From assembly GCA_048885925.1 (NCBI GenBank), contig JBHLLG010000056.1, forward strand, positions 1 through 18,281: a stretch of 18,281 bases of DNA. Direction: 5' to 3'. Of the stretch, positions 931-17,141 are shown in pieces (within the stretch, counting starts at the first letter, position 1; each line of letters opens with the position of its first letter). A program made the translations under genes and the position numbers. This stretch comes from Candidatus Hermodarchaeota archaeon (GTDB taxonomy: Archaea; Asgardarchaeota; Lokiarchaeia; Sigyniarchaeales; SOKP01). The notes beneath the pieces are model-generated. The model ran no database searches. It was not told where the DNA came from and saw only the letters and a program-made list of their open reading frames with translations.

Positions 931-955
931 ATTAATTACTTAGAAAACAATCATA
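931..955 (+). pseudogene. Probable remnant of the last codons of an Lrp/AsnC gene
   Basis: aattacttagaa (934-945) is identical to 6002-6013, which encodes part of QLLRT at the end of 5137..6021. It lies 47 vs 49 bp upstream of operator site 1 of the shared control element. Confidence 0.5.
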
Positions 956-974
956 TGTTAGTTTTTGTCCATTC

Positions 975-1208
975 ACAAATTTCAACTAATTGGAAAATAT
1001 TTTGGTAAGTTTTGTTCAAATATGTAAACAATTAAGAGGAAATATGCTGATTCTATTGATATTTTTGAATAGTATAAAAATTTAATGTTAGGTAGTTTCA
1101 CTTATTAATTTCAATATATATCCTTTTAGAACTATAAACACTTATTCGAATTTTTTCTCCTTATCAACAAACATGCTCTTATTAGAACCCCATTCTGTAC
1201 TATAAAAA
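975..1208 (+). promoter_or_regulatory. Conserved control element, copy A (three putative Lrp operators + TATA-like box)
   Basis: Sites ttcaactaattggaa 981-995, aacaattaagaggaa 1027-1041 and ctccttatcaacaaa 1157-1171 (degenerate), followed by catgctcttattagaacccc. Colinear with copies at 6045-6275 and 16010-16235. Confidence 0.75.
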
Positions 1209-1271
1209 AAAAATTAAACTTTTAAATTAAATTAAAATGAAATATCATCTAAAAAAAAAGGTTATCAAAAA

Positions 1272-2081
1272 GTGTCAGAATCAAAATCAAAAACTGATGA
1301 AATGAAGCTTGATTCCGATAATTCGTACGCTATTGAAGTCAAGGATTTAAAGAAATATTTTGCAGGGAAAAATCGTTATGAGGATGTTAAAGCTGTTGAT
1401 GAAATATCGTTTCAGGTAAAAAAAGGAGAATTATTTGGTCTTTTGGGACCTAATGGAGCAGGAAAAACCACTACAATAAATATGCTATGTGGTTTATTAA
1501 AACCAACAGAGGGGTTTGCTATTGTTGGTGGTTATGATGTAAGGAAGTATCTTAATAAAGTTAAGGAATTAATTAGTGTGTGCCCTCAAGAAGCAGCAGT
1601 ATTCCCATTTCTTTCAGGTAGAGAGAATATTGAGTATTTCGGGAACATGCACCTGATGTCGAAAGAAAAAATTAATGAGCGAGCAGAAAAATTGTTAAAG
1701 GTATTAGATTTATATGAAGCAAGTAAGCGAAAAGCAAAAGGATATAGTGGAGGAATGAAAAGGCAATTAAATTTATTAGTTGCGTTAATAAACGAGCCCA
1801 ATATTCTCTTCTTAGATGAACCAACGGTGGGAATGGACCCTCGAGTTCGACGAAAAACATGGGAGTTTATTGGTTCTATAAAAGATGAAAATAGAACCAT
1901 CATCCTAACAACCCATTATATCGAAGAAGCAGAAGTTCTCTGCGATAGAGTTGCGATAATTGATTATGGGAAGTTAGTTGCGCTGGGTCCTCCTAAAAAA
2001 TTAATGGAAGAACACGGAGCTAAAAATTTGGAGGAAGTTTTTTTGAAAATTACCGGAAGAAGAATTTTGGAGGGGGTTTAA
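1272..2081 (+). CDS. ABC transporter ATP-binding protein (DrrA/NodI-like exporter type)
   Basis: Walker A GPNGAGKT, signature YSGGM, Walker B LFLDEPT, H-loop TTHY, C-terminal LEEVFLKITG. Confidence 0.95.
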   Translation: MSESKSKTDEMKLDSDNSYAIEVKDLKKYFAGKNRYEDVKAVDEISFQVKKGELFGLLGPNGAGKTTTINMLCGLLKPTEGFAIVGGYDVRKYLNKVKELISVCPQEAAVFPFLSGRENIEYFGNMHLMSKEKINERAEKLLKVLDLYEASKRKAKGYSGGMKRQLNLLVALINEPNILFLDEPTVGMDPRVRRKTWEFIGSIKDENRTIILTTHYIEEAEVLCDRVAIIDYGKLVALGPPKKLMEEHGAKNLEEVFLKITGRRILEGV

Positions 2082-2083
2082 TA

Positions 2084-2839
2084 ATGAAAGGACAAAGGAT
2101 TCTAACTGTTTTTAAGATGGAAATGAAGAAAATGATAAGAACACCATTATACTTAGTTTTTTCGCTATTTTTTGTTGCGTTGCTAGTAGTAATATTAGGA
2201 TTTGCGCTAAGTAATATATATGAATGGGGACCTGATGCATATGGGAATCCAAGAAGTATTTTTGAACACATGGTACCAGGATTATTTGCTTATGCAGGAA
2301 TCTTAATAGTGTTTACTTTCGCATCAGCTATCACTGGAGACCGAGATACTGGAGTGCAGAGAAGAATGAAGACAACTCCAATAACCTCTGGAGAAGTAGT
2401 ATTAGGTCAAATGTTAGCATATACAATTATACCAATCCTTCAAACCGCTATAATATTGATAACTGCGCTTCTCATGGGTTTTAATCCAATAATTACTGTT
2501 GAGGGGGTAATAATGGTATTTGTATTTATGATCTTTATGAGTTTTTGCTCAGTAGGGCTTGGATTGATTACTGCCACCATTGCCAAAGATGCTAGAGCTG
2601 CAGGTAGTTTAGCTTTTATCTTTATTGTACCACAACAGATGTTTGGATCATTCATATACATGGGCGAAGCAACAAGAGTAATAGGGTATGCCATGCCAAG
2701 TCAATATGTTACTGAAGGCATATACCGAATTTTCTATGGAGGTACTTTAACGGATGTATTTATATGGCTTGACCTTCTAATAATTGCAATTATCAGTTTT
2801 ATAGTATACATAATTGGTGTAAAATTGTATGATAGGTAA
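2084..2839 (+). CDS. ABC-2 type exporter permease
   Basis: 251 aa with about 6 TM segments and motifs MVPG and DRDTGVQRRMKTTP (ERExG..R...TP-like). Starts 2 nt after the ATPase stop. Confidence 0.9.
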   Translation: MKGQRILTVFKMEMKKMIRTPLYLVFSLFFVALLVVILGFALSNIYEWGPDAYGNPRSIFEHMVPGLFAYAGILIVFTFASAITGDRDTGVQRRMKTTPITSGEVVLGQMLAYTIIPILQTAIILITALLMGFNPIITVEGVIMVFVFMIFMSFCSVGLGLITATIAKDARAAGSLAFIFIVPQQMFGSFIYMGEATRVIGYAMPSQYVTEGIYRIFYGGTLTDVFIWLDLLIIAIISFIVYIIGVKLYDR

Positions 2840-2857
2840 TTCCTATCCTTTTTTTTT
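2831..2857 (+). terminator. Hairpin + T-run terminator of the ABC operon
   Basis: gatagg-taatt-cctatc followed by c and nine T. Confidence 0.7.
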
Positions 2858-2868
2858 GATTCATTTTG

Positions 2869-2914
2869 TTTCATAACCATGAAAATTAAATATTTATGAA
2901 TGTTTTTTCATAAA
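2869..2914. promoter_or_regulatory. Two adjacent inverted repeats, putative operator of the 2989 gene
   Basis: tttcat-aacc-atgaaa (2869-2884) and tttatgaa-tgtttt-ttcataaa (2893-2914), just upstream of TATA-like ttttaaag (2923-2930). Confidence 0.4.
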
Positions 2915-2988
2915 ACAATATCTTTTAAAGAAATTATAGATTTAATAACGAATATTGGAAAAGTTATTAAGTTAATAGGTAGTTGTTT

Positions 2989-3243
2989 ATGAAAAAGTGG
3001 ACAGCATTTATTATTGGAATAATTCTGGTTGCTGTTTTTATAGTAACCATGTTTGTTTTACCCCCGTTACTTGGATGGTATTACCCTGATATTTTGAGTT
3101 GGCAGGATTTTGTAGATTCTATTAGTACACCAGAAGGCTTTATTATCGGGATCGTTACTGAGGTGATTCCGATCATATGTGTTACAATCGGAGCCATTTT
3201 TCTAATAATTTTTCTTGTTAAAATAGTTCAGGGCAAAGAATAA
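2989..3243 (+). CDS. Small two-TM membrane protein of unknown function
   Basis: Two long hydrophobic stretches. ATG 2989 preferred (TTG 2983 is an alternative). Followed by a T-rich tract. Confidence 0.75.
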   Translation: MKKWTAFIIGIILVAVFIVTMFVLPPLLGWYYPDILSWQDFVDSISTPEGFIIGIVTEVIPIICVTIGAIFLIIFLVKIVQGKE

Positions 3244-3326
3244 CTAAATAGTAATTATTTTATTTTTTTTATCTTTATAGAGCAAAATATTTTTAAATAA
3301 GAAATAAAGCAAAAAAGTTGTAGAAA

Positions 3327-3980
3327 GTGGACGAACAAAGGATATTAGAGACAGAGGATCTTAAAAATTACATTAAAAAGTTAGAAATTGATATATATGG
3401 CATTGCAGACATGAAATTACTAACTGAAATGGAAACAGGACTTCCCACAGATACGAAAAAATTCATAAATATGTTTCCATATGCTATTGTATTAGGTGCT
3501 CAATATGGAAAGTTAGGGAGAAAAACCTCTGGTGGCAAGACCGCATTATTTTTAGAAGATGCTGCGTTTTCTATAATGGAATACTTGGAGGATAAGGGTT
3601 TTAGGCAACTTATTATTCATACTGAAGATGAATTTGATCCTATTAATCGGAAAGGGTTTATGTCTCTAAAACTCTTGGCAAAAACAGCGGGTCTAGGTTG
3701 GCAGGGTAGGTCATTATTAATTATTTCTCCAGAATATGGTCCTTTACATCGGTTAATTGCAATTTTAACAAACCTACCACTTCAAACTAATCAAGTAATT
3801 AAAAATGAATGTGGCGATTGCCGAAAATGTATAGAGGCATGTCCTCGGAACGCACTTACTTTTGTTGCTTTTGAAGATCATCCCTCATGTAGAGAGGATG
3901 TTTTAGATATTAAGACTTGTTTAGGAGATAATGGATGTCTGGTATGTATTTTATCTTGTCCTCGGCTTAAAAAGTCTTAA
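3327..3980 (+). CDS. QueG/reductive-dehalogenase-like 2x[4Fe-4S] protein
   Basis: Motifs YGIAD, K..A..AGLGWQGRS.L.ISPEYGP.HRL..ILTN, CGDCRKCIEACP and C...CLVCILSCP. True substrate unknown. Confidence 0.85.
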   Translation: MDEQRILETEDLKNYIKKLEIDIYGIADMKLLTEMETGLPTDTKKFINMFPYAIVLGAQYGKLGRKTSGGKTALFLEDAAFSIMEYLEDKGFRQLIIHTEDEFDPINRKGFMSLKLLAKTAGLGWQGRSLLIISPEYGPLHRLIAILTNLPLQTNQVIKNECGDCRKCIEACPRNALTFVAFEDHPSCREDVLDIKTCLGDNGCLVCILSCPRLKKS

Positions 3981-4012
3981 TATACATTTTGGTATAACCT
4001 TTTTTGTCTATT

Positions 4013-4975
4013 CTATGATTTGGGTAATATTGCTATTTTTTTCATTTTTTTAAAAATCTTAGCTATACTTAATATATGATGATGATTTGTACCACAACAT
4101 CCTCCGAGGATTTTAATATTTGAGTTTAAGTAGAGATCTATCATTTTTTTTCCCCAAATGCTAGGACTTTCAGAACTTGTTTCTTCAAGTGATTCTAATT
4201 CTTCAGGACTCATAGCAGAACCATTCGCCTGTAGTCCCTTAAGTCGAGTTCTTATTAGTTCCGTATTATTAGGTTCATTATTAATTGCACTCCAACAATG
4301 AGTAGGATGAACGCAATTCAGCATATAATAGATAGGTTTTGGTGAAACAGAATTATCAATTACCGAAATTGTCTCATTAAGAGATGTTCCATCTAACAAG
4401 GTTCCATTTGGGCGTATAACAAAACTTATAACATAATCAATATTTGATTCTGCCATTGCTTTAGCCATACCTAGTGCCTCTGAAGCTGCAGGTATAGTGG
4501 ATCCCATTAAAAAGTCCACACCTGCTTCTTTTAACTCTTTTACTTGAAATTTATGAAATTTATATGCCTCATCACTCAAAAGAGCTTCTTCTGGATTATA
4601 GGCATCCCCTTTACAAGCCATTGGCCCTCCTATTAATATTTTATTAGCAAACTCCCCATAACTATCACGAATATCAAATAAAAATTTAACACAATCAGCA
4701 TTAACGTTCTTTTGTTTAAATCCAGCTAACTCTAGACGTTCCTGACTTGCTCGCCAAGTAGGAGCTAACATTAGAATTGGTAAATTAAATTTATGGGCTA
4801 CGGAAATATACTGATTATAGATTTTATCAAGTATTTTTTTTCCTTGAGTATTATAAATCATACCCGCATTCTCGATGTATTGGTTCAACTCAAATTTGAA
4901 TTCTCTTTTTACTCTTTCGATAACAGCTCCTTCAGCAAGAATTAAAGGATTTTCTGAAATTAGTTTTCTTAACAT
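4013..4975 (-). CDS. Homocysteine S-methyltransferase family protein
   Basis: N-terminal ILAEGA, AGVDFL, Zn ligands NCVHP and GGCCGT. Confidence 0.9.
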   Translation of the reverse strand: MLRKLISENPLILAEGAVIERVKREFKFELNQYIENAGMIYNTQGKKILDKIYNQYISVAHKFNLPILMLAPTWRASQERLELAGFKQKNVNADCVKFLFDIRDSYGEFANKILIGGPMACKGDAYNPEEALLSDEAYKFHKFQVKELKEAGVDFLMGSTIPAASEALGMAKAMAESNIDYVISFVIRPNGTLLDGTSLNETISVIDNSVSPKPIYYMLNCVHPTHCWSAINNEPNNTELIRTRLKGLQANGSAMSPEELESLEETSSESPSIWGKKMIDLYLNSNIKILGGCCGTNHHHILSIAKIFKKMKKIAILPKS

Positions 4976-5136
4976 AATTCCTTGCCTTCCTTACTTTAAG
5001 TTATAAAATTTAATTATTATTTTTGTTAACAACATCAGAATAATTAAGAATTTACAGATAAGAACTAATAAATTTTTTGCTGGACAATAAATAACTAATA
5101 TTATTATCCTAGTTAATTAATATTCTAGTAACTACT

Positions 5137-6021
5137 ATGGATGAAATTGACCTAATCATACTTCGAAAACTACTATATAATTGTCGATTGACATATCGAG
5201 AATTAGGTGATATAACTGATATGTCAGTGAGCGCTATACATAAACGTATAAAAAAACTTGAAGATGATGGGATTATCACAGCCTATATTGCTCGACCAAG
5301 CTCAATAGCATTAAAGTATCTAAACGTTGTAATTTTTGGAAAATCTAATGCAAAATCAATGGATGTAATTAGTAAAGAGATTGGACAACATGAGTGTATT
5401 GATGGTGTTGGAATTTTAGGGGGAAAAAGACTCTATATAGGTGTTTTATTAAGAGATATATCAGAACTTCAAGAAATAAGTAGTTATGTTTCAAAAACGG
5501 GTCAAATTAATGAACCAACAGTAGGGATTCTTAACTATCCTTATTTGATCCAACCAGAACCTCTAACGAATACTGATTATAAAATACTAAAGACTCTAAA
5601 TAGAGATGCAAGGAAGCCTATAGTTGATATTGCTGATGATTTAGGATTATCTGCCAGAACTGTAAGAAGACGATTAGATCGAATGATTGAGAATAATTTA
5701 GCTTCATTTACGCTGGAATGGTTACCCTTGTACGAAAATACTTTTATCACGGTTTTTCATCTATATTTAAACGAAGGAACCGATATAAATTCCAAAATTC
5801 AACATTTAAGTGAGATATATTCTCAGAACATGATTTACTGTGTGAACTTTAGCAATATTCCTAACTTGATTCTATTGAGTATATGGAATGCAACTGCTCA
5901 AGACTCTCAGAGAATACTTGAAGAACTGCAAACCGAAGGTTTCAAGGATGTAATCCCCCATATTTTCTACTCGATGAAATGGTATGATTGTTGGATCGAT
6001 CAATTACTTAGAACTAAATAA
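5137..6021 (+). CDS. Double-domain Lrp/AsnC family transcription regulator (clade 1)
   Basis: Two AsnC-type wHTHs (MDEIDL..R.TYREL...SVSAIHKRIKKLE and DYKILK.LNRDARKP..DIADDLGLSARTVRRR), each followed by a RAM-sized domain. Confidence 0.92.
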   Translation: MDEIDLIILRKLLYNCRLTYRELGDITDMSVSAIHKRIKKLEDDGIITAYIARPSSIALKYLNVVIFGKSNAKSMDVISKEIGQHECIDGVGILGGKRLYIGVLLRDISELQEISSYVSKTGQINEPTVGILNYPYLIQPEPLTNTDYKILKTLNRDARKPIVDIADDLGLSARTVRRRLDRMIENNLASFTLEWLPLYENTFITVFHLYLNEGTDINSKIQHLSEIYSQNMIYCVNFSNIPNLILLSIWNATAQDSQRILEELQTEGFKDVIPHIFYSMKWYDCWIDQLLRTK

Positions 6022-6044
6022 TATTACAGAACTAATTTTAATGT

Positions 6045-6275
6045 CTAAATCTCAACTAAATGGAAAAAAAATGTGATCTTTTTTGTTCCATGTTTATTAA
6101 TTTGAGTGGAAAAATATAGATTTCATTGATTTTCTAGATTAATTTAGCTTTTCTGAATTATATAAAATCACCTAAAATTCTCCATTCTTTATATTTAGCA
6201 CTTACAAAGGTGTATTGTTGAATTTTTTCCAAATAAGTGAACATGCTCTTAATAGAGCACCAATCTATAATAAAA
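6045..6275 (+). promoter_or_regulatory. Conserved control element, copy B
   Basis: Sites ctcaactaaatggaa 6051-6065, ttaatttgagtggaa 6097-6111 and ttccaaataagtgaa 6227-6241, followed by tgctct-taat-agagca 6244-6259. Confidence 0.8.
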
Positions 6276-6313
6276 TTAAAAATAAAATTGTAAAAATAAA
6301 AGAGGTAAATATA

Positions 6314-7366
6314 ATGAAGGAAGAAAAAAAGTTGAATAATTTTAAGGAGAGTGGTATGAAAGCAATTATATATTCAAAATACGGACCGCCAGATGTTCTG
6401 AAGGCTAAAGAAGTAGAAAAACCTACTCCCAAGGACAATGAAATATTGATAAAAATACATGCCGCAACAGTAAGTGCTGGGGATGTGAGAATGCGAAGTG
6501 GCAAATTCCCTATTATTGGGGGAATTGGCTGGTTAGGTGCGCGATTATATTTTGGCCTCAGAAAGCCAAAAAGAACATTATTGGGGACTGAATTAGCTGG
6601 AGAAATCGAAGCAGTGGGTAAAGATGTAAAACGATTTAAAATAGGTGACAAAGTTTTTGGCACATCTACAATGTGGCATTCTGGAGCTTATGCGGAGTAT
6701 ATATGTATACCTGAAGAAAGGAAAAAAGAAGGAATGGTTGCATTAAAACCTTCTAATATGACTTATGAAGAAGCCGCCGCTGTTCCTGTTGGTGCTAATA
6801 TGGCCTTGCATTTTCTAAGAAAAGCAAATATCCAGCCCGGGCAAAAAGTTCTTATCTATGGTGCTTCTGGAAGTGTGGGTACTTATGCTGTTCAGCTTGC
6901 TAAGTACTTTGGAGCAGAAGTAACTGGCGTGTGTAGCACCACAAATTTGGAATTAGTAAAATCTCTAGGTGCTGATAAAGTAATTGATTATACCAAAGAG
7001 GATTTTAGTAAGAGCGGTGAAAAAGGGAATTACGATGTTATCTTTGACACTGTAAGCAAAGCTTCATTTTCAGACTGTAAAAGAACGCTAAAGAAAAAAG
7101 GTATCTTTATTGAGGCTAACCCTAGGGTGCTAAATCTTATTCGCGGATCAGTGAAGTCTATCAAAGTAATAGTGGGTAATGCAATTGAAAAGAATGAGAA
7201 TTTAACTTACCTTAAAGAGCTCATTGAAGAAAAGAAGTTAAAAGCAGTCATAGATAGAATTTATCCAATGGAACAAATCACTGAAGCCCACAGGTATGTT
7301 GATAAAGGGCACAAAAAAGGGAATGTAGTAATAATTGTGAATCATAATGTGCGAGGAAGTGATTGA
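6314..7366 (+). CDS. NAD(P)-dependent MDR-superfamily oxidoreductase (quinone-reductase/'alcohol dehydrogenase'-like)
   Basis: Motifs [34 protein letters not shown] and GHKKGNVV; catalytic Zn cysteine absent (TVSAGD). Start is ATG 6314 (GAGGT RBS) or ATG 6356 (AAGGAG RBS), not TTG 6215. Confidence 0.92.
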
Positions 7367-7369
7367 ATT

Positions 7370-7735
7370 ATGGAAGATGTGAAAATAATTCTTTCAGGTT
7401 TATGGGTAGCTATAATGCTAACTTATTTTTTGGGGGATGTAATGCGAATATTTAGTGGTGATTTTGAAGAAGAATCAAAAAAATATAGAAAAATGAGTCA
7501 AAAATTGATGTTTGTAATGACCGTGTTGATGCTGCTTCCAATTATTATGGTCATCCTATCTCTGACAATAACTTATCCCCTGAATCCCTGGGTAAACGTT
7601 ATTGTTGCTATAATCTTTGCTATCTTTAATCTCATGAATATACCTTCGGCCATTTCCAAATATGATAAATTTTTGTTTATTGTAGGAATTATATTTAATA
7701 TAATGGTAATCTGGTATGCATGGAATTGGATGTAG
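7370..7735 (+). CDS. DUF6326-like membrane protein
   Basis: MEDVKIILSGLWVAIML.Y..GD, MVILSLT, WVNVIVA and C-terminal WYAWNW; 4 TM segments. Starts 3 nt after the MDR stop. Confidence 0.8.
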   Translation: MEDVKIILSGLWVAIMLTYFLGDVMRIFSGDFEEESKKYRKMSQKLMFVMTVLMLLPIIMVILSLTITYPLNPWVNVIVAIIFAIFNLMNIPSAISKYDKFLFIVGIIFNIMVIWYAWNWM

Positions 7736-7826
7736 ACATATATGATTATGGATATAATAGATAAAGATTTTTTTAATCAAATTTTTTATTTTTAATTAAA
7801 AGAAATTTATCAACTTGGTGATTAGA

Positions 7827-8315
7827 GTGAAGCTATGGATTATACATAAGGATGAAATTGGATTCTCTAACATTATTGCAGAAATACTCCAAAATCGCTT
7901 GGAAGATTATATAGATGTTTTTGTAGGAAATGCTAAAAGGATCGATCCTTCCTATGTTGTTGAAGAAAAATTAGACTTTTTGATAATTGGAGATATTATC
8001 AGCAAGGAAATTCCTAATTTGGAAATTAAGGATTGGTTCCTTAAATTTTGGGAACTGTCAAACAAAAAAAAGGTCGTTCTTAAAGCAATCTCAGGATATT
8101 ATATTGCATTAGCCGAAATCATAGTTGAACCCTTTTGGGTTAAATTTCTTCATGATAATGTAAAGGTTAATATTATCTATCCACCAATACTTCGTTTAAT
8201 ACTAAATAGCGGAGATATATCATTAGAGAATAAAGCATATGATAAAGTTAAAGACTATTCAAACGATTTAATTGAATATTTTGTAGAGAATAAAAGAAAG
8301 AAAAAAAATTATTGA
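7827..8315 (+). CDS. Divergent flavodoxin-fold protein
   Basis: Paralogue of 9374..9835 (LWII....G.S..I.EI....LE.Y..V.VGNA....PS.V..EK.DF.I.G). A GGTGA RBS favours GTG 7827. Confidence 0.7.
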   Translation: MKLWIIHKDEIGFSNIIAEILQNRLEDYIDVFVGNAKRIDPSYVVEEKLDFLIIGDIISKEIPNLEIKDWFLKFWELSNKKKVVLKAISGYYIALAEIIVEPFWVKFLHDNVKVNIIYPPILRLILNSGDISLENKAYDKVKDYSNDLIEYFVENKRKKKNY

Positions 8316-8344
8316 AGCTCATCCTTTATTTCTAGGTAGAAATC
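8312..8344 (-). repeat. Direct repeat R1 (gene 3'-end remnant, DFYLEIKDELQ*)
   Basis: ttgaagctcatcctttatttctaggtagaaatc matches 14561-14593 at 28/33 and is preceded by an A-tract like the other copies. Confidence 0.75.
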
Positions 8345-8459
8345 AGAATGTGTGATATTATAATATTTTAAGAAAAAAGCATATTCTTGAAAAATAAAAT
8401 TTTTATTTAATTCATCTAATAATAGAATATCAAATTAACCAGCTTTATGTGTAAAATTC

Positions 8460-9245: not shown

Positions 9246-9312
9246 ATCTTCTTCTCATAATAAAATGCTTAAAAATATTAATTAAAAAGAAAAAAAGAAA
9301 TAAAAATTATTT

Positions 9313-9365
9313 TTGAAGCTTATGCTTCATTTCCATGTAGAAGTCCAGCGATTCTGGGTTTTTGA
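9313..9365 (-). repeat. Direct repeat R2 (gene 3'-end remnant KNPESLDFYMEMKHKLQK* + terminator)
   Basis: 48/53 identical to 14561-14613. Contains tgaagc-N4-gcttca and has a T-rich tract downstream on the minus strand. Confidence 0.9.
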
Positions 9366-9373
9366 ATACATAA

Positions 9374-9835
9374 TTAATTGAAGAAGAATATAATTAAGTG
9401 TTTAACGTATTTTGTAATCAAGGTATAAGTCTCTTTATCTAAAGATCCATTAAAAGTATTAATTTTCAAGACTAATGGTTTAGAAAAGATAGATTCAGCA
9501 GGGAAATATTTAGACATTGTTTTTACCCCAGTATCATTAATATCTAGATTACCTGGTACAATATAATAAGTAGCAACTTTTTTAATGGAAATATTATTAA
9601 ATTTTAAAAGTATATAAAATTCTTCAATCCACTTAGTAATAGGATTCAGAGAATTTTTTCGAATAAATTCACCAAAAATTATAAAATCAGGTTTTTCATC
9701 TATTACTAAGGAAGGTTTGACAATTTCAGCATTTCCTACGGATACATTAAAATATTCTTCTAATTGAGACTCAAATATCTCACTAATCATTTTTGAATAA
9801 CCAAAAGTATTGCTATAAATAATCCATAGATTCAT
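9374..9835 (-). CDS. Divergent flavodoxin-fold protein
   Basis: IIYSNTFGYSKMISE resembles the flavodoxin phosphate-binding loop, followed by DFIIFG and KKVATY. GAGGT RBS; starts 27 nt downstream of the wHTH gene. Confidence 0.72.
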   Translation of the reverse strand: MNLWIIYSNTFGYSKMISEIFESQLEEYFNVSVGNAEIVKPSLVIDEKPDFIIFGEFIRKNSLNPITKWIEEFYILLKFNNISIKKVATYYIVPGNLDINDTGVKTMSKYFPAESIFSKPLVLKINTFNGSLDKETYTLITKYVKHLIIFFFN

Positions 9836-9862
9836 TAGTTATTACCTCATAACCTTTTAATT

Positions 9863-10750
9863 TTAATTTAAGAGATAATTAGATAATTCACTAATCTTAT
9901 CATTTCCTGCAGTCTGCCCATAGTTTTCTAAGATTGGGATATTAACTGTGAATTTTTGTTTTCTTAATCCCTCGATTTTTATAGCTATTAAATTTGCTTT
10001 TTGCAGTTTTTTAAGGTGATATTGAATGGCGTTGGGAAACAATTGAAGATTTCTGCTTATTTGTTTAATGGAAATTTGTGAATTCTTTAAAATTTCTATA
10101 AGAATTTTACACACTAATGGGTTTAAGAATAAAGTACTAAGCCGTTCAAAAATCTCAGGGAATTCTATTGAAAAGAAATGTAATCTCTTCCCAAACTTGG
10201 TTGAGCGGATTAACCCAAAGTTTTCCAAGGTTATAATGTATTTTAGAAAGGTCGTTCGTGTTATATTTAATTCTGTTTCTATTTTGTTATCACTAGCATG
10301 AATTCCAGGATTCTTTCTTATAAAATTAAGAATAGCTCTGTATTTCTCATTATTAAGTATTTCTTCTTTAGTCCTACGTTGATTAGAAATAATCCAGTTT
10401 TTATTTTCTAAATTTTGAATCGCAAAGAAGATTTCCTCTTTTGAATAATCATGGCTATAACTTAATTTTGCAATACATTTTGAATATAATTTTTCTAAGA
10501 TTGGATATCTTTGAATTTGAGATTTTGAATTCACCTTAAATTTAGCAGAATATCGCTTTAATTTTAATATCTCTTCAGCAATTTTTAATACTTCAAATTC
10601 AATTTGAGATAAATTTTCAGTTGAATCTTCTTTATCTGTTAGATTGCGGTTAACAGAATTATTCTTCGCAATTACTCTTGAAGATTTCTTAATTAGAGGA
10701 TTAAATAGATTCCTATCTGCATAAAATACTAAAGTTTCTTCTTCAATCAT
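9863..10750 (-). CDS. Multi winged-helix (ArsR/MarR-like) transcription regulator
   Basis: ILNFIRKNPGIH...YIITLENFGLIRS and ISIKQISRNL...AIQYHLKKLQKANLI. GGAGG RBS. Confidence 0.8.
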   Translation of the reverse strand: MIEEETLVFYADRNLFNPLIKKSSRVIAKNNSVNRNLTDKEDSTENLSQIEFEVLKIAEEILKLKRYSAKFKVNSKSQIQRYPILEKLYSKCIAKLSYSHDYSKEEIFFAIQNLENKNWIISNQRRTKEEILNNEKYRAILNFIRKNPGIHASDNKIETELNITRTTFLKYIITLENFGLIRSTKFGKRLHFFSIEFPEIFERLSTLFLNPLVCKILIEILKNSQISIKQISRNLQLFPNAIQYHLKKLQKANLIAIKIEGLRKQKFTVNIPILENYGQTAGNDKISELSNYLLN

Positions 10751-11012
10751 TATTTAAAATCCCTCCAGTGATAGTTGGCTTTTTATTTTAAATGAAATTA
10801 AATTTAGAGTATTTTACTAACTCCTAAAGTTCTGTTTTAATATTAAAATTCTAATTCTTCCTAAGAATATAATATTGGAGGTAGGTTTTAAGAATATGTT
10901 TAGAAGATAACAGAATAAAGAGAAAAAATTTTAGGAATTTTTCCGATTTATTTCCTAGATGTGATAAAAGTTAGAATTGTAACAACCGATATTTTTCCAT
11001 CTCATTAAAAAT

Positions 11013-11885
11013 TTAGAGATGATCTAGCCAACATTTGAAATAATAACATTTGTGAATAATTCGGGGAATCATGTCAATAAGTCCAATATCTTTTAAAATA
11101 TTTTCAAAATATTGTATCTGGTTAAGAGTTTTTACTAAAATATGAACTGAAAGGAATAGAGGATTATTATTATAGGTTCGTACATATAATAAGTGTTGAG
11201 ATATAGTTTGGATTATTTTACTAATAACATCTTTCATGTCTGTGCTATTAGGAATATATGAATGGAAGATGGCAACAATATCATTCTCTTGACTAGGTTC
11301 AAATTCAATTGTGAAGGATACTAAATTGTTGGTTATCATATCATTAATATGTTTACTAACCGTTTTACTTGATAACCCCGTCTCATCTGCTACTTCTGAG
11401 ACCGATTTTCGTGAATCCCTATTTAAAGATTTAATAATTTGATAATCTATTTTTGAAAGGGTCCCAGTTACCTTTTGGTAGGGATAGTTATAAATTACAA
11501 TAAAAGGATCTTCAATTTTACATATCTCTGTTAGATTTTGTGTTACATTATGCATTTCTGAAATACTCCTGAGTACAGCGGTAATATATACATAATTCCC
11601 CGTAGAAATCCCAAAAAGAATCGTATAAGGATTCTCTCCAAAAATCTCGATTACTCTGTCATAGGATTTCAGCTTTGAAATACCCCCAATATTAATGACA
11701 ATTGCATTTAAAGCACTAAAACTTGGTCGAGCGATAAATGTCTTAATATCTCCCTTCTCTACTAAGTACTGAACTCGTTTATGAACTGCTCCAACAGATA
11801 ATCCAATCTCTTCTGCCAAATCGCGATAAGCAATTCGAGAATTAATTAGTAATTTTTTAATTATTTGTAAATCAATCTCATCCAT
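11013..11885 (-). CDS. Double-domain Lrp/AsnC regulator (clade 2)
   Basis: MDEIDLQII start at ATG 11885 matches the paralogues; two wHTHs; same length (873 bp) as 12070..12942. Confidence 0.92.
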   Translation of the reverse strand: MDEIDLQIIKKLLINSRIAYRDLAEEIGLSVGAVHKRVQYLVEKGDIKTFIARPSFSALNAIVINIGGISKLKSYDRVIEIFGENPYTILFGISTGNYVYITAVLRSISEMHNVTQNLTEICKIEDPFIVIYNYPYQKVTGTLSKIDYQIIKSLNRDSRKSVSEVADETGLSSKTVSKHINDMITNNLVSFTIEFEPSQENDIVAIFHSYIPNSTDMKDVISKIIQTISQHLLYVRTYNNNPLFLSVHILVKTLNQIQYFENILKDIGLIDMIPRIIHKCYYFKCWLDHL

Positions 11886-12069
11886 TGTGGTTCGCAATAA
11901 TTAAACACGTTAAAAATAAAAAAATTTCGTAAATTATATACAATTTTATAAAAAAACTTAAAGAAAATTCGGGAATTTTTTAGTAAAGCAAGTAAATTTA
12001 ATGATCGATATAATTCATAGAAAAGTACTAAATTAATACTGATTGATAGATCTAACTATAATTTAAAAT

Positions 12070-12942
12070 TTAGAATTCATCTAACCAACTTTTAAAATAA
12101 TATCCATTATAAACAATTCTTGGAACTATATCTTTTAGTCCAATATCTTTTAAAATTTCCTCAAAGTGTGTAATATTATTAAGGGTATTGACTGAAACAT
12201 GAATTGTTAGCATTAGTGGGAAATTGCTATATGTTCTAATATAAAGTAAATTCTTAGGGATATGTAGGTGTATTTTATTAATTATGTCTTTCATATTATT
12301 GTTATTTAAAATGTTAGCATGAAAAACAGTAATAATATCATTTTCATAGATCGGTTGAAACTCTATAGTAAATGTTATTAAGTTATTCGTTATCATATTA
12401 TTGATATGCTTACTTACTGTTTTACTCGACAATCCTGTCTCATCAGCCACCTCCGAAACGGTTTTTCGTGAATTCCTGTTTAGAGATTTAATAATTTGAT
12501 AATCTATTTTTGAAAGGGTCCCAATTACCTTTTGGTATTGATAATTATTTATTAAAATTAAGGGATCGTTTATTTTACATATATTTGAGAGATTATGGGC
12601 AATATTAGCCATATCTGAAATATTTTTCAATACTGTTATAAGATACAAATAATTTCCACTCGATATAGCTAAAAAATTTGCATAAGGATCTTCTTCTAAT
12701 TTATCAAGAATTCCCTCAAATGACTGTAATTTAGAAGTTCCAAATATGTATACAGGGATAGCATTAAAAAAGCTATAACTTGGATGAGCTATAAAATTTA
12801 TAATAACATTATTATCTACTAAATTTTGAACTCGTTTATGAACAGCACCTACAGATAATCCAATTTTTTCTGCTAATTCTCGGTAGGGAATACGTGAATT
12901 AATAAGGAATATCCTTATTATCTGTAGATCGATCTCATCCAT
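12070..12942 (-). CDS. Double-domain Lrp/AsnC regulator (clade 2), tandem duplicate
   Basis: Colinear with 11013..11885 (offset 1057 bp); the HTH segments are nearly identical. Confidence 0.92.
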   Translation of the reverse strand: MDEIDLQIIRIFLINSRIPYRELAEKIGLSVGAVHKRVQNLVDNNVIINFIAHPSYSFFNAIPVYIFGTSKLQSFEGILDKLEEDPYANFLAISSGNYLYLITVLKNISDMANIAHNLSNICKINDPLILINNYQYQKVIGTLSKIDYQIIKSLNRNSRKTVSEVADETGLSSKTVSKHINNMITNNLITFTIEFQPIYENDIITVFHANILNNNNMKDIINKIHLHIPKNLLYIRTYSNFPLMLTIHVSVNTLNNITHFEEILKDIGLKDIVPRIVYNGYYFKSWLDEF

Positions 12943-13159
12943 AGAATCCCAAAGTCCTTAAAATATTTCAAAAGGTAAAAATATTTCTAAAATTGAAGTT
13001 TAAAAAATTTTAAAAAGATAAGGTGAATTTTGGAATTTTCATTAGAGGTGAATACATAAAATAATGAAAATAGAGGAAAAAAAATTTTTTTTAACAGTAT
13101 TTTCTCGTTTATTTTGAAATAGTCAATGGTTTGATAGAGTTATTATTATTAAAGATATT

Positions 13160-13738
13160 TTATGATGACAGTAATATTTCTAAAAAACTTTCTGCGAATG
13201 CTCTGATTTTGTTCCAATCCCGAAAATCATTATTTTGTCCTTTTTTGATGTTAGGAAGGGTATTACTCATTAGTTTTCCTATTTTTATATCAAATTTACT
13301 CATCCTGGATTCTTCACTGAGATCTAAAACCCCTCCAAACACATCATAACATTGCGTTTTGAGTGAGTGTTTTTTCAGTTTATCTTCAATGAGGCTTTTT
13401 TTTAATTCAGGGATTTTGGTAGGATCACTAGCGGTTCCACAAAGCGTAAATATTGCGAGGGGTTGGTTTCCTTGTTTTAATCTTTTTGAAAAGCCTTTCA
13501 AAAATTGTTTGGCCCCTTTCGTCCAATTGCTGCAATTGTAAATAGCAGTCCCTAAAATAATACCATCATAAGAATCTAAATTAAATTTTTTATCATTAAT
13601 TATATCTTCTAGATTGTACACATTGGCATCAATCCCCGATTCTTTTAAAAGTTCTCCGATTTTTACGGCTACTTCTTCTGTACTTCCGTAACACGTACCA
13701 TACAAGATAACAACTTTTTTAGTTATTTTGCTACTCAT
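13160..13738 (-). CDS. Flavodoxin-domain protein (HemG/Flavodoxin_5-like)
   Basis: YGTCYGSTEEVA FMN loop, YDGIILGTAIY, VFGG and DFRDWNKIRAFA. Confidence 0.9.
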   Translation of the reverse strand: MSSKITKKVVILYGTCYGSTEEVAVKIGELLKESGIDANVYNLEDIINDKKFNLDSYDGIILGTAIYNCSNWTKGAKQFLKGFSKRLKQGNQPLAIFTLCGTASDPTKIPELKKSLIEDKLKKHSLKTQCYDVFGGVLDLSEESRMSKFDIKIGKLMSNTLPNIKKGQNNDFRDWNKIRAFAESFLEILLSS

Positions 13739-13778
13739 TTTTTAATCACATCATTTCTATTTCTTTTAATTAAATGCC

Positions 13779-13846
13779 TTGATTTATAAATAGAAAAAAG
13801 AAGTATTAAGAAATTTGGAAACAGTTTGTTGTTATGATAGTTAGTA
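13779..13846 (-). promoter_or_regulatory. Duplicated 68-bp promoter/operator, copy 1
   Basis: 61/68 identical to 14397-14464. Contains an ACA-N6-TGT dyad and CTTAATA (13804-13810, minus strand). Confidence 0.8.
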
Positions 13847-13913
13847 GCTAATGTGATTTAAAAAGCAAAAAAATTCTTGAATCCATTAAATATTAAGGGA
13901 AAAAAAAGATTTT

Positions 13914-14360
13914 TTATTTTTTCATAAAAAGCTCCTTTCCAGCAATTACCAACGCAAATGCAGTGATAACGGTTAGCATTATGTACGCCATATATGGAAT
14001 GTTGAAATTAAGTACTGGAAAGGTTAGAATAAGCTCCATGATAAGAGGGATGATAGTGCCGATCATTAAAAATATAAAAGCTTGTTTCGAAGATTTCCAG
14101 AAAGTCGAGTATATTGCATATAGAACGAAGACTTCCACAATTATAAAAGCAATTCCCATCATCCGGATGTATAGTGAAATCAAATACGCTAGATGAGGAT
14201 AATTACTGCCTAATTGTGCCCATGTTAGCTCGCTATACGCGAGATCATCTAAAATCAATGTCCCAATCACAAAGTATGTTGAGTAAACGATGATATGTAT
14301 CCCTGCCGCAAAGATCAAAAAGAAAATAGCAATTCTTCTTAAAATAATGGATCGATTCAT
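13914..14360 (-). CDS. Four-TM membrane protein of unknown function
   Basis: 148-aa hydrophobic ORF with an AGGTGG RBS and its own promoter copy. Confidence 0.8.
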   Translation of the reverse strand: MNRSIILRRIAIFFLIFAAGIHIIVYSTYFVIGTLILDDLAYSELTWAQLGSNYPHLAYLISLYIRMMGIAFIIVEVFVLYAIYSTFWKSSKQAFIFLMIGTIIPLIMELILTFPVLNFNIPYMAYIMLTVITAFALVIAGKELFMKK

Positions 14361-14396
14361 AAATTAACCACCTTTTTTAGTTTTGTTTTGAATAGT

Positions 14397-14464
14397 TTGA
14401 TTTATAATTAGAAAAAAGAAATAATAAGAAATTTGGTGACAGTTTATTGTTATGATAATTAGTA
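14397..14464 (-). promoter_or_regulatory. Duplicated 68-bp promoter/operator, copy 2
   Basis: Matches copy 1. Dyad gtgaca-gtttat-tgttat and CTTATTA (14422-14428, minus strand). Confidence 0.8.
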
Positions 14465-14560
14465 CAGGGTACTTTTTAAAAAATAAAATAACAATATGGC
14501 TAATTATTCTAGTTATGTTCTTTAGATTTAGATAAAAAAAATAAAAAAAATGATTTATTA

Positions 14561-14613
14561 TTGAAGCTTATCCTTCATTTCCATATAGAAATCCCGCTAT
14601 TCTGGGTTTTTGA
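14561..14613 (-). repeat. Direct repeat R3 (KNPE*RDFYMEMKDKLQ*)
   Basis: 48/53 identical to R2; in frame with the zinc-ribbon ORF. Confidence 0.9.
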
Positions 14614-14782
14614 TTTCTCTAAATAATTTTATTAATTCTATAAAATTAGGATTAAATTCCCCCTTATGATATATAAGTTCACATTCTTCGCAATATCCAA
14701 AAAGTTTATCCGTTTCTAAGTCATAAATTACGGGAAATATTCTATTACCACATTTTATACAGATTAATTCTTGAATCTTCAA
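14597..14782 (-). CDS. Small zinc-ribbon protein (possibly truncated by a premature TAG)
   Basis: CIKC...CEEC pairs; GAGGA directly upstream of the TTG start. The frame stays open 12 codons past the TAG to a TAA at 14558-14560. Confidence 0.6.
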   Translation of the reverse strand: MKIQELICIKCGNRIFPVIYDLETDKLFGYCEECELIYHKGEFNPNFIELIKLFREIKNPE

Positions 14783-14903
14783 TCCTCTTCTACTTTTACT
14801 TGTTTTTAAATCTATTTTCTGCAGTTTTTTCCACCTTTTTTATAATAAAAAACTATTTCAGGGGTTATTAAAAAAACTATATAATCCCCTTTTTGATTAA
14901 ATT

Positions 14904-15218
14904 TTAAGTATTCCACTTCCAAGCTTGCAAAAGTATCAATACCAGTAATAACCCTTCTATGGCTCCGTATAATATATAGTACACTGGATTGTTTCCTGTG
15001 AAAAAGGTCGTTAATAGTATAATAGATAAAACTATTCCTATGATGATATTTGTCGGACGATTTACTTTAGCTTTTAGAGTAAGAGACAAGAACACCATTA
15101 GACTCGGAATTGCCATTAATATTGCACTTGATAATAAAAATGCGGAGGTTATTTGGATCCCTGCTATCTCTCTTGTTATTAATTCACTTAAATGCCCCGG
15201 CTCATAAAAATCATCATT
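14904..15218 (-). pseudogene. 5'-truncated DUF6326-like gene
   Basis: The frame is open upstream of the track's ATG: FYEPGHLSELITREIAGIQITSAFLLSSAILMAIPSLMVFLSLTLKAKVNR...AWKW. It has no start codon or first TM helix before the in-frame TAA at 15219-15221. Confidence 0.8.
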
Positions 15219-15263
15219 TTATTGTTTATGCAACAAAGCCTCTGCTTTTCTTACTTATTGATA

Positions 15264-15962
15264 TTATTGGCTTAAGGATGCCAAGACCTCTTGATTGAAA
15301 CCCTTGACTATCAGCCAGACTCCTATTGCTATTTCGAAGAAGAGGGTAGGAAGCTCTAGGAACAAGGAGATATCGTGGATTCCAAAGAATCCAAGGAATG
15401 CACTTACAAATCCCAATAGAGTGACAATGACTCCAAACATTCCAAGCCACTTAGGAACCAATCTAGTTCTGAAGAAGATGTAGCAATACATGAAAGCTCC
15501 ACCATTAAACGCAAACGTCGCAAGAATCCCTGTCATCTCATTCATACTGAGAAAGGTGTGGGCTAAAATCTGATAAGTCGTATCAACAGGAGATCCAGCA
15601 GCAACATATGCGTTGCTTACAATAAGCACTGCAATAAACAATAGGGAAGCAACACCAAAGAGAACGGTCTCTATCAGACGAAAACCTATAGCAGACAGAG
15701 CCATTGACTCATTATACTTCTTGAGAACTGGATACAGAAATATCGCAATGTTGGCAGTGAAGAGAGCCATAGATAAGAATAGTAGTGAACCAATTAGAAC
15801 ACCGGTCTCATTCTGAGAGAATAATGCTACATTTGTCTCCACTTGTTGATAATCGCCTAGAAAGACGAGGCTCAATATTCCCGCTACTATTGCTAGTAGC
15901 CACATTAATCCTGCAACTTGTGCATTAAGTTTGTATGATACATTTATTTTTATATCTTCCAT
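15264..15962 (-). CDS. DUF4386-like membrane protein with a DUF6326-like N-terminal octapeptide
   Basis: Motifs LYPVLKKYNESMAL..IGFRLIE, FFRTRLVPKWLGMFG and FFEIAIGVWLIVKGFN. GGTGAT RBS; GC higher than the flanks. Confidence 0.9.
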   Translation of the reverse strand: MEDIKINVSYKLNAQVAGLMWLLAIVAGILSLVFLGDYQQVETNVALFSQNETGVLIGSLLFLSMALFTANIAIFLYPVLKKYNESMALSAIGFRLIETVLFGVASLLFIAVLIVSNAYVAAGSPVDTTYQILAHTFLSMNEMTGILATFAFNGGAFMYCYIFFRTRLVPKWLGMFGVIVTLLGFVSAFLGFFGIHDISLFLELPTLFFEIAIGVWLIVKGFNQEVLASLSQ

Positions 15963-16009
15963 TTTTCAATCACCATCTTTTCAGTTATTTTGTTTTTATT
16001 TTTAATTTT

Positions 16010-16235
16010 TAATAGAGATTGGGGCTCTAATAAGAGCAAGTTCACCGATAAGGAAAAAAATTAGCAGTGAGAGCTTATAGTTATTAAAGTTAAGGAATGT
16101 TAATTTTCCATTGAAATTAATAACATAAAATAAAAGATAAATTGGAAAAACCAATAAAATTCATATTTTTCCTCTCAATTGAATAAATTTTGGAATTGAA
16201 AGTACCAAAATTTTTTCCAATTAGTTGAAATTTTA
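16010..16235 (-). promoter_or_regulatory. Conserved control element, copy C
   Basis: Minus-strand sites ttcaactaattggaa (16229-16215), ttcaattgagaggaa (16183-16169) and ttccttatcggtgaa (16055-16041), followed by gctct-tatt-agagc (16037-16024). Confidence 0.8.
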
Positions 16236-16254
16236 GGATTAAGAAATCAATAGC

Positions 16255-17130: not shown

Positions 17131-17141
17131 TTTTTTATTTG

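Follow-up and report, generated by a model that had tools for sequence, protein, structure and literature searches.

The window and its repeated spacers

Asgard archaea are the closest prokaryotic relatives of the eukaryotes and, to our knowledge, almost nothing is known experimentally about the regulation of their genes. The stretch of DNA analysed here (hereafter the window, 18,281 nucleotides) is contig C56 of a Candidatus Hermodarchaeota assembly of 3.9 Mb in 181 contigs with 29% G+C. Close homologues of its double-Lrp protein bear names that put it within Lokiarchaeota/Promethearchaeota. The window contains three intergenic spacers, referred to as A, B and C, each of which lies behind a gene, or the remnant of a gene, for a double-Lrp protein (two Lrp-type units fused in one chain) and in front of a different gene or set of genes (hereafter the cargo). 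An earlier note, based on a first reading of the window, had described these spacers as copies of a repeated module in which three operators of the form TTC-N9-GAA are held in a fixed geometry. The present analysis deals with this element, its distribution in related genomes and its probable mode of action. The features of the three copies and of the double-Lrp genes associated with them (members of clade 1, as defined below) are as follows.

931..1208, + strand: element A, with an Lrp 3'-end remnant (931-950), the sites, the box and a TATA-like motif (1197-1208)
981-995, 1027-1041 and 1157-1171, + strand: sites 1, 2 and 3 of element A, site 3 being degenerate
1175-1188, + strand: box of element A, GCTCTTATTAGAAC
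5137..6021, + strand: clade-1 double-Lrp gene upstream of element B, 294 residues, two units each of winged helix-turn-helix (wHTH) and RAM domain
6000..6279, + strand: element B, with the Lrp 3' end, the sites, a T-run, the box and the TATA-like motif
6051-6065, 6097-6111 and 6227-6241, + strand: sites 1, 2 and 3 of element B, the T-run adjoining site 3
6245-6258, + strand: palindromic box of element B, GCTCTTAATAGAGC
6266-6279, + strand: TATA-like motif of element B, TATAATAAAATTAA
16002..16290, - strand: element C, with the sites, the box and a TATA-like motif (16002-16014)
16229-16215, 16183-16169 and 16055-16041, - strand: sites 1, 2 and 3 of element C
16037-16024, - strand: box of element C, GCTCTTATTAGAGC
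16255..17133, - strand: clade-1 double-Lrp gene upstream of element C
17526..18281, + strand: third clade-1 double-Lrp gene, cut by the contig end

The three spacers are a homologous repeat, aligning over ~370 columns with a mean column identity of 75% (pairwise identities of 57% for A-B, 67% for A-C and 63.5% for B-C, with 29% expected at random). The distances from site 1 to site 2 (46, 46 and 46 bp in A, B and C) and from site 1 to site 3 (176, 176 and 174 bp) are exactly those given in the earlier note; the DNA between the sites, which had been called diverged, is indeed less conserved than the sites but still homologous. Elements B and C begin, as had been read, within the last ~34 nucleotides (nt) of double-Lrp genes (294 residues, two HTH_AsnC-type domains), and element A follows a short double-Lrp 3'-end remnant situated behind a DUF4386 gene. 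Contiguity of the DNA is borne out at A by one contig covering 731-1439 and at B by contigs from the runs of three studies covering 4910-6435.

Within the window it is the homology of the spacers and the box, and not the dyad pattern, that stand above chance. The box GCTCTTAWTAGARC occurs three times where 0.04 occurrences are expected, a number reached in none of 200 shuffles. TTC-N9-GAA per se is not enriched in the window (13 occurrences against 8.8 +/- 2.9 expected; 22 of 200 shuffles reach 13), and only five of the nine sites in the window carry it exactly.

Distribution of the element and its linkage to double-Lrp genes

A profile of the three spacers detected eight copies of the element in this genome, the three in the window and five more (among them copies D to H), all on one strand of contig C74 and each preceding a different gene or gene pair. 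A wider search with a sequence-only covariance model of the 133-nt proximal part gave 45 matches in 22 of the 53 genomes of the genus. In an order-level sample of 150 genomes, 130 of them from the family, matches with scores of up to 96 bits were found in 45 of these 130, distributed over seven genera, the core scoring 88-96 bits in the other genera. Outside the family one weak match was obtained in 14 genomes of one family and none in the single genome and the four genomes that represented others; BLAST searches with the 121-nt core in the other families of the order returned short AT-rich marginal matches only. The number of copies per genome is low (1-8). A second search of the surroundings of most matches, with full-length profiles, yielded 40 copies for the genus set and 26 for other genera; a joint search returned 70 matches with 69 unique sequences, on which the figures for geometry and conservation given below are based. 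A double-Lrp gene with a regulatory spacer of fixed geometry and a variable cargo thus forms a repeated module across the whole of this Asgard family, and the element is far commoner than the three copies first read.

Clade 1 of the double-Lrp genes was defined by translated searches with the product of the gene at 5137 (hereafter the 5137 protein), the identities being bimodal with 57-70% for clade 1 against at most 39% for the other double-Lrp clades. The element directly follows 31 of the 33 clade-1 genes for which downstream sequence is available; one of the two exceptions (G061:C132) retains just the first ~100 bp of the element and the other (L098:1117-2010) is without any. Seen from the side of the element, 18 of the 40 copies in the genus set are linked to Lrp: 14 begin inside an intact or nearly intact clade-1 gene, copy G lies 83 bp behind one, copy D lies behind a gene fragment cut at the start of its contig, and two follow broken clade-1 genes, one with a single TAG and the other with two TAA codons. 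In other genera an intact clade-1 gene precedes 16 of the 26 copies. Copies other than those of the window therefore adjoin Lrp genes as well. Co-occurrence was also evident in the 150-genome sample, in which all 25 genomes with a clade-1 gene carry the element, which is also present in 22 of the 125 genomes that lack the gene and absent from the other 103 (Fisher p = 8e-16, a value that is overstated as related genomes are not independent).

Orphan copies without a clade-1 gene exist. Short Lrp 3'-end remnants precede copies A, E, F and G, and together with the broken genes they span stages of decay from intact gene to remnant. Contigs break inside the repeated Lrp genes, C56 ending in one (18281) and C74 starting in one (L031 1-203), and the absence of the regulator from a draft genome is therefore weak evidence; the repeated modules probably break assembly, so that copy numbers are underestimated in drafts and some of the 'missing' regulators may be present in the organisms. 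Bit scores in the genus genomes, compared by eye as a gauge of box quality (medians of ~63 with and 56 without a clade-1 gene), show an unconvincing difference, the assemblies being incomplete.

Some copies bear traces of exchange. The first ~100 bp of copies C and G (window 16290-16178 and L031 8670-8771) differ at one position and the remainder is far more diverged; the near-identical stretch (99%) runs from the Lrp 3' end across site 1 as far as site 2, and in copy G it includes a TGG-to-TAG change in the pseudo 3' end. To judge from the alignment, this looks like gene conversion or recombination between copies. Copy F with its cargo (L031 4200-5100) is 92% identical over 886 bp to a contig binned to a different genus (L104, G073:C100, 1650-2560), as compared with only ~60-70% protein identity between double-Lrp orthologues of different genera. 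The similarity suggests recent transfer or cross-binning, and the view of copy F as an 'ancient orphan' was rejected on account of it. At another locus (L075, G020:C89, 464-1074) there are two copies in head-to-tail order at a distance of ~290 bp, an interval that contains a run of N, and the first of the two has no cargo of its own. A gelsolin-repeat gene is present in the locus of one relative, which fits an Asgard archaeon.

Sequence anatomy and conservation

The element is ~230-300 bp long and its 5' end is formed by the last codons of the clade-1 tandem-Lrp gene. These are followed, in the 5' to 3' direction, by sites 1 and 2, a linker rich in T-tracts, a proximal unit, a short leader and the start of the cargo. 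The proximal unit consists of a T7 run, a TTC-N9-GAA dyad (site 3), 3 bp, the palindrome GCTCT-N4-AGAGC, 9 bp and the TATA-like motif TATTAWAATTAA. Conservation, measured as information content over the 69 unique copies with position-based weights, is distributed as follows.

CAT together with the GCTCTTATTAGAGC box: 1.50
Coding end of the Lrp gene: 1.40
9 bp between the box and the TATA-like motif: 1.21
Left flank of site 1 (ATTCCCAAAT): 1.18
Site 1: 1.15 (95th percentile of 15-bp windows)
Site 3: 0.96, its 9-bp centre 0.48 (89th percentile)
Site 2: 0.90 (83rd percentile)
Linkers: 0.61-0.74

All three sites are thus better conserved than the DNA between them. The description of three TTC-N9-GAA operators is too simple. 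Site 3 is a consistent dyad (exact in 48 of 65 copies) and behaves as a true one because its arms are conserved and its centre is free; sites 1 and 2 are mostly inexact (21 and 13 of 53 copies, respectively) and are conserved as asymmetric sequences resembling each other (TTCAAyT.A..GGAAAA). The box had been treated as a mere adjunct of site 3, and here the first reading has to be reversed: the box and its flanks show the strongest conservation of the element, and on its sequence the palindromic box is a better candidate operator than the dyads. Its core, TCTTAWTAGA, is intact in 43 of 66 copies. The spacers of B and C are 63.5% identical as compared with 50% at the third codon positions of their Lrp genes, which argues against neutral decay. 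The possibility that an inverted repeat around site 1 (CCAAA...TTTGG) forms a stem or a long dyad was dropped as unsupported, since several copies have the repeat broken and a possible compensating change (CCGAA...TCGG) is present in one lineage only (L064, L078a, L086).

Spacing of the sites and helical phase

Three segments of the element almost exclude insertions and deletions. The spacing of sites 1 and 2 is 46 bp in 46 of 52 copies and that of site 3 and the box 18 bp in 61 of 66; the stretch that begins with the box and ends with the TATA-like motif measures 35 bp in 56 of 61. For sites 1 and 3 the distance falls into classes of 154-157 bp (5 copies), 162-167 bp (26), 173-177 bp (21) and 180 bp (1), and no copy lies at 158-161 or 168-172 bp. 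Of the fixed geometry first proposed, therefore, the 46-bp spacing is rigid, whereas the distance between sites 1 and 3 varies in steps of ~10 bp.

The best period for the latter distance is 10.0-10.5 bp (10.0-10.25 bp in the genus set). R is 0.73 when all 32 genus copies are used and 0.69 when each of their 25 distinct indel configurations is counted once, values nominally reached by 0 and 2 of 20000 uniform nulls, respectively. The shortenings of ~10 bp in the genus set are built from different indels at different places. Sixteen copies from other genera, measured with alignment-free anchors, show the same classes (R 0.62 at 10.25-10.5 bp, p ~0.002). T-tracts of at least three T between sites 1 and 3 give a sharp peak at 10.5 bp (power 0.82 against 0.34 +/- 0.05 in shuffled sequences). 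To judge from the sequences, phased spacing combined with phased T-tracts has the signature of curved DNA that protein would wrap or loop along a single helical face.

Position of the probable promoter

The 12 tRNA genes identified by aragorn in this genome are preceded by TTATAA(A/G)-type boxes, which lie ~20-30 nt from the mature 5' end. In the element, TATTAWAATTAA stands at a fixed 9 bp past the box and is followed by an A-rich stretch, a GGTG-type ribosome site and the start codon of the cargo, which is typically 53-70 nt past the box core (+62 in C and +56 in B). The layout appears to fit a standard archaeal promoter with a short leader, and from the tRNA promoters and the distance to the start codon TATTAWAATTAA is probably the active TATA motif. 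The palindrome lies upstream of this TATA-like motif and is thus placed where archaeal Lrp activators bind. The stretch between the box and the TATA-like motif, CCCCAATCT, is not purine-rich, unlike the stretches preceding the TATA boxes of the tRNA genes, and it may constitute a weak B recognition element (BRE) that would require an activator.

The putative double-Lrp regulator and its own upstream region

The 5137 protein matches the Pfam families PF13404 (HTH_AsnC-type, 5.5e-24) and PF13412 (HTH_24, 2.3e-24), each in two stretches (residues 1-48 and 143-183), and the same two-fold helix-turn-helix (HTH) pattern was found in all clade-1 genes examined. Pfam AsnC_trans_reg was not reported for this protein, and a profile search against PDB aligned residues 1-126/136 and 147-279 to complete Lrp regulators including the RAM domain (PH0061, FL11, LrpA). 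Its AlphaFold2 model (predicted local distance difference test 93, predicted template-modelling score 0.88) shows the fold of wHTH and RAM twice, and Foldseek matched single Lrp regulators to it with probability 1.0. The two fused units, as modelled, would form an intramolecular pseudo-dimer. A prediction of a complex of two copies (score 0.38, mark 0.42) gave no verdict and is evidence neither for nor against self-association of the protein.

Among 30 clade-1 proteins the identity is 74% in the second HTH domain (80% in its recognition helix), 68.5% in the first, and 63% and 59% in the RAM domains. The difference is modest, and the stronger conservation of the DNA-reading domains would fit a single DNA target combined with diversified ligands.

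Upstream of the clade-1 genes themselves lies a further conserved region, GAGAAAATTATAWTTAA ... ATTTCTTGTTAGAA-N2-3-ATG, with TTCTTGTTAGAA just before the ATG. An exact TCT-N4-AGA is present within 60 nt before the ATG in 9 of 28 clade-1 genes, in eight of them at -13..-4, as compared with 1.5% of 3174 upstream windows of the genome. The core of this upstream motif matches the box core TCTTATTAGA at nine of ten positions, and a match to the box core with at most one mismatch occurs in 5 of 28 clade-1 upstream regions against 0.98% of the 3174 windows; the clade-1 upstream regions are homologous, so that these counts amount to about one independent observation. The sequences are what autoregulation through the same recognition sequence would look like. 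In the window the feature is represented by the following.

5124..5133, + strand: degenerate copy of TCT-N4-AGA, TCTAGTAACT, just before the start codon at 5137, a candidate autoregulatory site

Two further observations concern the double-Lrp genes of the window. The gene at 16255 has no ATG, GTG or TTG at the homologous start (17103-17142, - strand), where it reads ...TNKKIDLLIIR; the first canonical start, a TTG at 17103, would cost ~10 residues of the first HTH domain, and the gene may have a non-canonical start or be decaying. Two clade-2 double-Lrp genes, which share 35-38% identity with clade 1, lie in tandem at 11013-11897 and 12070-12942 (- strand). Neither is accompanied by a copy of the element, and their neighbours (window 9374-12942) include a gene at 9863-10750 for a 295-residue protein that has two HTH regions and, at 9374-9835, a second flavodoxin-like paralogue.

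Cargo genes

The first downstream open reading frame (ORF) is on the strand of the element in all 39 genus copies that have one. The cargo of the three copies in the window is given below.

1272-2081, + strand: cargo A, ABC ATPase (Pfam ABC_tran, 9e-32)
2084-2839, + strand: cargo A, ABC-2 permease (Pfam ABC2_membrane, 5.5e-22)
6314-7366, + strand: cargo B, MDR/zinc-ADH-like oxidoreductase (Pfam)
7370-7735, + strand: cargo B, DUF6326 protein (Pfam)
7815-8315, + strand: cargo B, flavodoxin-like protein of 166 residues (ESM Atlas lead only, score 0.90, template-modelling (TM) score 0.76)
15264-15962, - strand: cargo C, DUF4386 membrane protein (Pfam, 2e-32)
14904-15116, - strand: cargo C, weak DUF6326 fragment (20.7 bits, below the cut-off)

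The families are those named at first reading, except that the 'truncated DUF6326' gene of copy C (14904-15116) is a weak assignment, its 20.7 bits falling short of the cut-off of 24. The five copies on C74 precede an ABC ATPase with an ABC-2 permease, a 219-residue protein of unknown family, a DUF166 protein, a 162-residue flavodoxin-like protein with a paralogue of transcription factor B (TFB) (copy F), and a CPBP/Rce1-like protease with an amine oxidase. The TFB (TFIIB) paralogue is encoded at L031 (G000:C74) 5210-6181, behind the flavodoxin-like gene, and a paralogue of a general transcription factor may therefore be a member of the same regulon.

Across the copies the cargo differs widely, as had been expected. 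Families that recur are ABC ATPases with ABC-2 permeases, MDR/zinc-ADH-like oxidoreductases, short-chain dehydrogenases, FMN reductase/SCP2, Flavodoxin_5/Fer4, a flavodoxin-like family of ~160 residues without a Pfam match (Atlas lead only), tautomerase, GNAT, alpha/beta-hydrolases, acyltransferase_3, a condensation-domain protein, hemerythrin, the membrane families DUF4386, DUF998 and DUF6326, and small proteins of ~120 residues; the pair of MDR and DUF6326 genes behind copy B is found again in another genus (L109). The theme common to the cargo is redox and detoxification chemistry, membrane proteins and export, which may reflect a response to quinone-like, electrophilic or hydrophobic compounds.

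Several cargo genes appear to start with ATT (L064; L078, ~3990-4320, - strand; L086; L110; L111; L031 ~9860-9910, the cargo of copy H; L065 ~7040-7060; L075; L063; L101; L114; L115). Five orthologous flavodoxin-like genes carry ATT where their homologues carry GTG (L100) or ATG (copy F, L104), before K-L-W-I-I, and have more than 140 nt without a canonical start. For other cargo genes, starts of the form ATT-ACT-CAA are suggested by GGTGATAAAAAATTAC(T)CAA, which recurs among them; the ORF for the condensation-domain protein of L065 is N-terminally short unless an ATT start is assumed. At an orphan locus in which S28e is followed by an alpha/beta-hydrolase gene (L073, L079, L081, L087) the start codon lies ~130-150 nt past the box, and the extra stretch has a conserved sequence of its own, ACAAATTTCAAA...TATGAAAAC.TTTAAATAG, which is possibly a second control element.

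Regulatory interpretation and alternative explanations

The spacers are best regarded, with a probability of about 0.6, as a conserved cis-regulatory module, namely a promoter with a helically phased array of regulator sites of the Lrp type. The fused double-Lrp protein, acting as a pseudo-dimer, would bind the palindrome just upstream of the BRE/TATA position and control the recruitment of the TATA-binding protein (TBP) and TFB, most likely as an activator by analogy with Ptr2 of Methanocaldococcus jannaschii and LysM and Ss-LrpB of Sulfolobus. Further double-Lrp copies would occupy site 3 and sites 1 and 2 on the same helical face, and the distal complexes would join the proximal one by wrapping or looping the intrinsically curved DNA. 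Several paralogous sensors may address one promoter type, since the DNA-reading domains of the paralogues are more conserved than their RAM domains. Where no Lrp gene adjoins a copy, control would be exerted in trans, and the response would be to redox-active, electrophilic or hydrophobic compounds. The identity of the binder, the sign of the regulation, the start of transcription and the ligand are what we infer from these patterns.

A more far-reaching scenario is offered tentatively and is on the whole doubtful. In it the tandem-Lrp gene, with a promoter and a curved, phased operator array in its 3' flank that loops over ~15-17 helical turns, would form a compact enhancer-like cassette propagating in Asgard archaea, and duplication of the cassette, divergence of ligand domains, loss of redundant sensors and recombination between copies would have built a redox, electrophile and xenobiotic stress regulon with a single promoter type under several paralogous sensors.

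A number of observations weigh against the cis-regulatory interpretation or parts of it. The element is present without a detected clade-1 gene in 22 of the 125 sampled genomes that lack one, and some such genomes (G002, G004) are reported to be 95-100% complete; either another factor uses the element there or the assemblies have missed the gene. The copies share a common ancestry, so that p-values of the shuffle and Rayleigh type overstate the significance of the phasing, and the length classes could in part be old paralogous lineages or the outcome of slippage of 10-bp T-tract units. The centres of site 3 and the box are ~17.5 bp apart, which is not an integral number of turns, and the 46 bp between sites 1 and 2 correspond to ~4.4 turns as compared with 2-3 turns in the known cases treated in the excerpts of PMC2995911 that bear on site spacing. 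Core-only copies exist, in which the distal sites are evidently dispensable. A second TATA-like motif, ACTATAAGC, is present ~35 bp upstream of the GAAC box in roughly half of the copies; it is considered secondary because core-only copies (H and L063, for example) do not have it, but if transcription did begin from it, the start would precede the box, and control would differ in sign and mode. The closest full-length structural match of the 5137 protein is an enzyme, the siroheme decarboxylase NirDL (TM score 0.62, 12% identity); the remaining top structural matches are all single Lrp regulators, and sequence and context favour a regulator rather than an enzyme.

The serious rival, which we nevertheless hold to be unlikely, is that the module is read by a different factor, such as another transcription factor or a specialised TFB or TBP, and that the double-Lrp gene is a co-duplicated passenger or regulates something else. 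The genomes with an element and no detected clade-1 gene speak for it, as do the S28e to alpha/beta-hydrolase locus, which keeps the core where no intact clade-1 gene is found, the TFB paralogue in the cargo of copy F and the further HTH genes nearby. Against these stand the constancy with which the element follows clade-1 genes (31 of 33) and accompanies them in the sampled genomes (25 of 25), the motif resembling the box core at the start of the Lrp genes themselves, and an architecture that matches known Lrp activators so far as they are described in the same excerpts (PMC2995911); the missing genes, moreover, are explicable by assembly breaks in repeats.

It is improbable that the spacer works as RNA, be it as the 3' untranslated region (UTR) or terminator of the Lrp gene, a small RNA, a structured leader or a riboswitch. 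Such a role would agree with the start of the element at the Lrp stop codon, with the conserved T7 run as a possible archaeal terminator, with a 5-bp hairpin that the box could form and with the upstream ACTATAAGC, which could place the box in a 5' UTR. RNAalifold, however, found no conserved pairs in 30 copies and Rfam no match at gathering thresholds; the outer pairs of the box are often broken without compensation, and the inner 10-mer is kept as a sequence (43 of 66). Copies without an Lrp gene keep sites 1 and 2, and a periodicity of 10.5 bp in the spacing is a property of double-helical DNA.

Comparably small is the chance that the element is a self-spreading mobile or repeat element with an outward promoter, similar to a miniature inverted-repeat transposable element. 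Several copies per genome before unrelated genes, the 100-bp stretch that is 99% identical between copies C and G and the 886-bp stretch with copy F and its cargo that is 92% identical between two genera would all be expected of one. Its left end of homology, on the other hand, varies from alignment column 1 to ~54 and always lies in or after the Lrp 3' end, copy numbers are low, there is no associated transposase and all copies point to a gene; terminal inverted repeats and target duplications were not noticed in the alignments, in which no dedicated search for them was made. The last alternative, that functionless sites are a neutral residue of recent segmental duplications, has a negligible probability: the copies clearly arose by duplication together with the ends of the Lrp genes, but such a residue is excluded by the conservation of the B-C spacer above third codon positions, by the core scores in other genera and by indels that are excluded from three segments and quantised in the fourth.

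The module offers a ready-made test system with a defined regulator family and a coherent set of target genes, in which a non-coding element of ~300 bp, conserved across at least seven genera, makes falsifiable predictions about the box, the rigid spacings and the 10-bp phasing. If the proposed binding is true, it would be the first described regulon architecture of Asgard archaea and a case in which a fused Lrp protein controls a promoter over a long range and in dependence on phase, and it would show the growth of a regulon by copying of a unit of sensor and promoter before new genes. The families DUF4386, DUF998 and DUF6326 could then be annotated as members of one stress response.

Comparison with known systems

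Promoters regulated by Lrp in Escherichia coli, such as ilvIH, contain multiple degenerate sites of ~15 bp phased on one face of the helix, with bending, wrapping and cooperative binding; they are served by the bacterial RNA polymerase and by single-unit Lrp that forms an octamer or hexadecamer. The element described here resembles them in having several degenerate sites of ~15 bp that would be phased on one face, and we know of no gene-linked cassette with exchangeable cargo among such promoters. In systems of the MarR and TetR type a sensor gene is the neighbour of the genes under its control, which serve detoxification or export or encode oxidoreductases; the regulators are usually divergently transcribed and repress through one or two operators overlapping the promoter. 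The adjacency of regulator gene and cargo, with a similar theme of detoxification and export, is shared with these pairs; the family of the regulator, the tandem orientation, the long phased upstream array and a promoter type common to many operons are not.

The siroheme decarboxylases NirDL/AhbAB (PDB 4ch7, 4czd) are, like the 5137 protein, single chains of two Lrp/AsnC-like units. The two are 12-14% identical, and the 5137 protein differs from the enzymes in matching HTH_AsnC-type with E values of 1e-24 in both halves, in matching NirdL-like_HTH weakly and below the cut-off, and in a context without haem genes.

The closest parallels are found in the archaeal Lrp activators. According to the pertinent excerpts of PMC2995911, the dimer site of Ptr2, LysM and Ss-LrpB lies a few bp upstream of the BRE in a highly constrained position, extra upstream sites matter for regulation, adjacent sites are aligned by helical periodicity and lie 2-3 turns apart in known cases, DNA wrapping by cooperative oligomers is invoked, and the targets of archaeal Lrp proteins include redox proteins and permeases. 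The element, compared with what these excerpts describe, has a 14-bp palindrome at a constrained distance of 9 bp before a TATA-like motif, conserved upstream sites at a distance from the proximal unit that is quantised by 10.0-10.5 bp, and a cargo that includes redox proteins and membrane transport. It differs in that the regulator is a fused double-Lrp unit, that the array flanks the regulator gene on its 3' side and would drive the next co-directional gene, that the distal and proximal parts are ~155, 166 or 176 bp (15-17 turns) apart instead of the 2-3 turns given there, and that the module is multiplied before unrelated cargo. No prior description was found in searches of open-access literature text. 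Relative to the known Lrp promoters, the fused regulator, the array in the 3' flank, the quantised distal distance and the multiplication of the module thus appear to be new.

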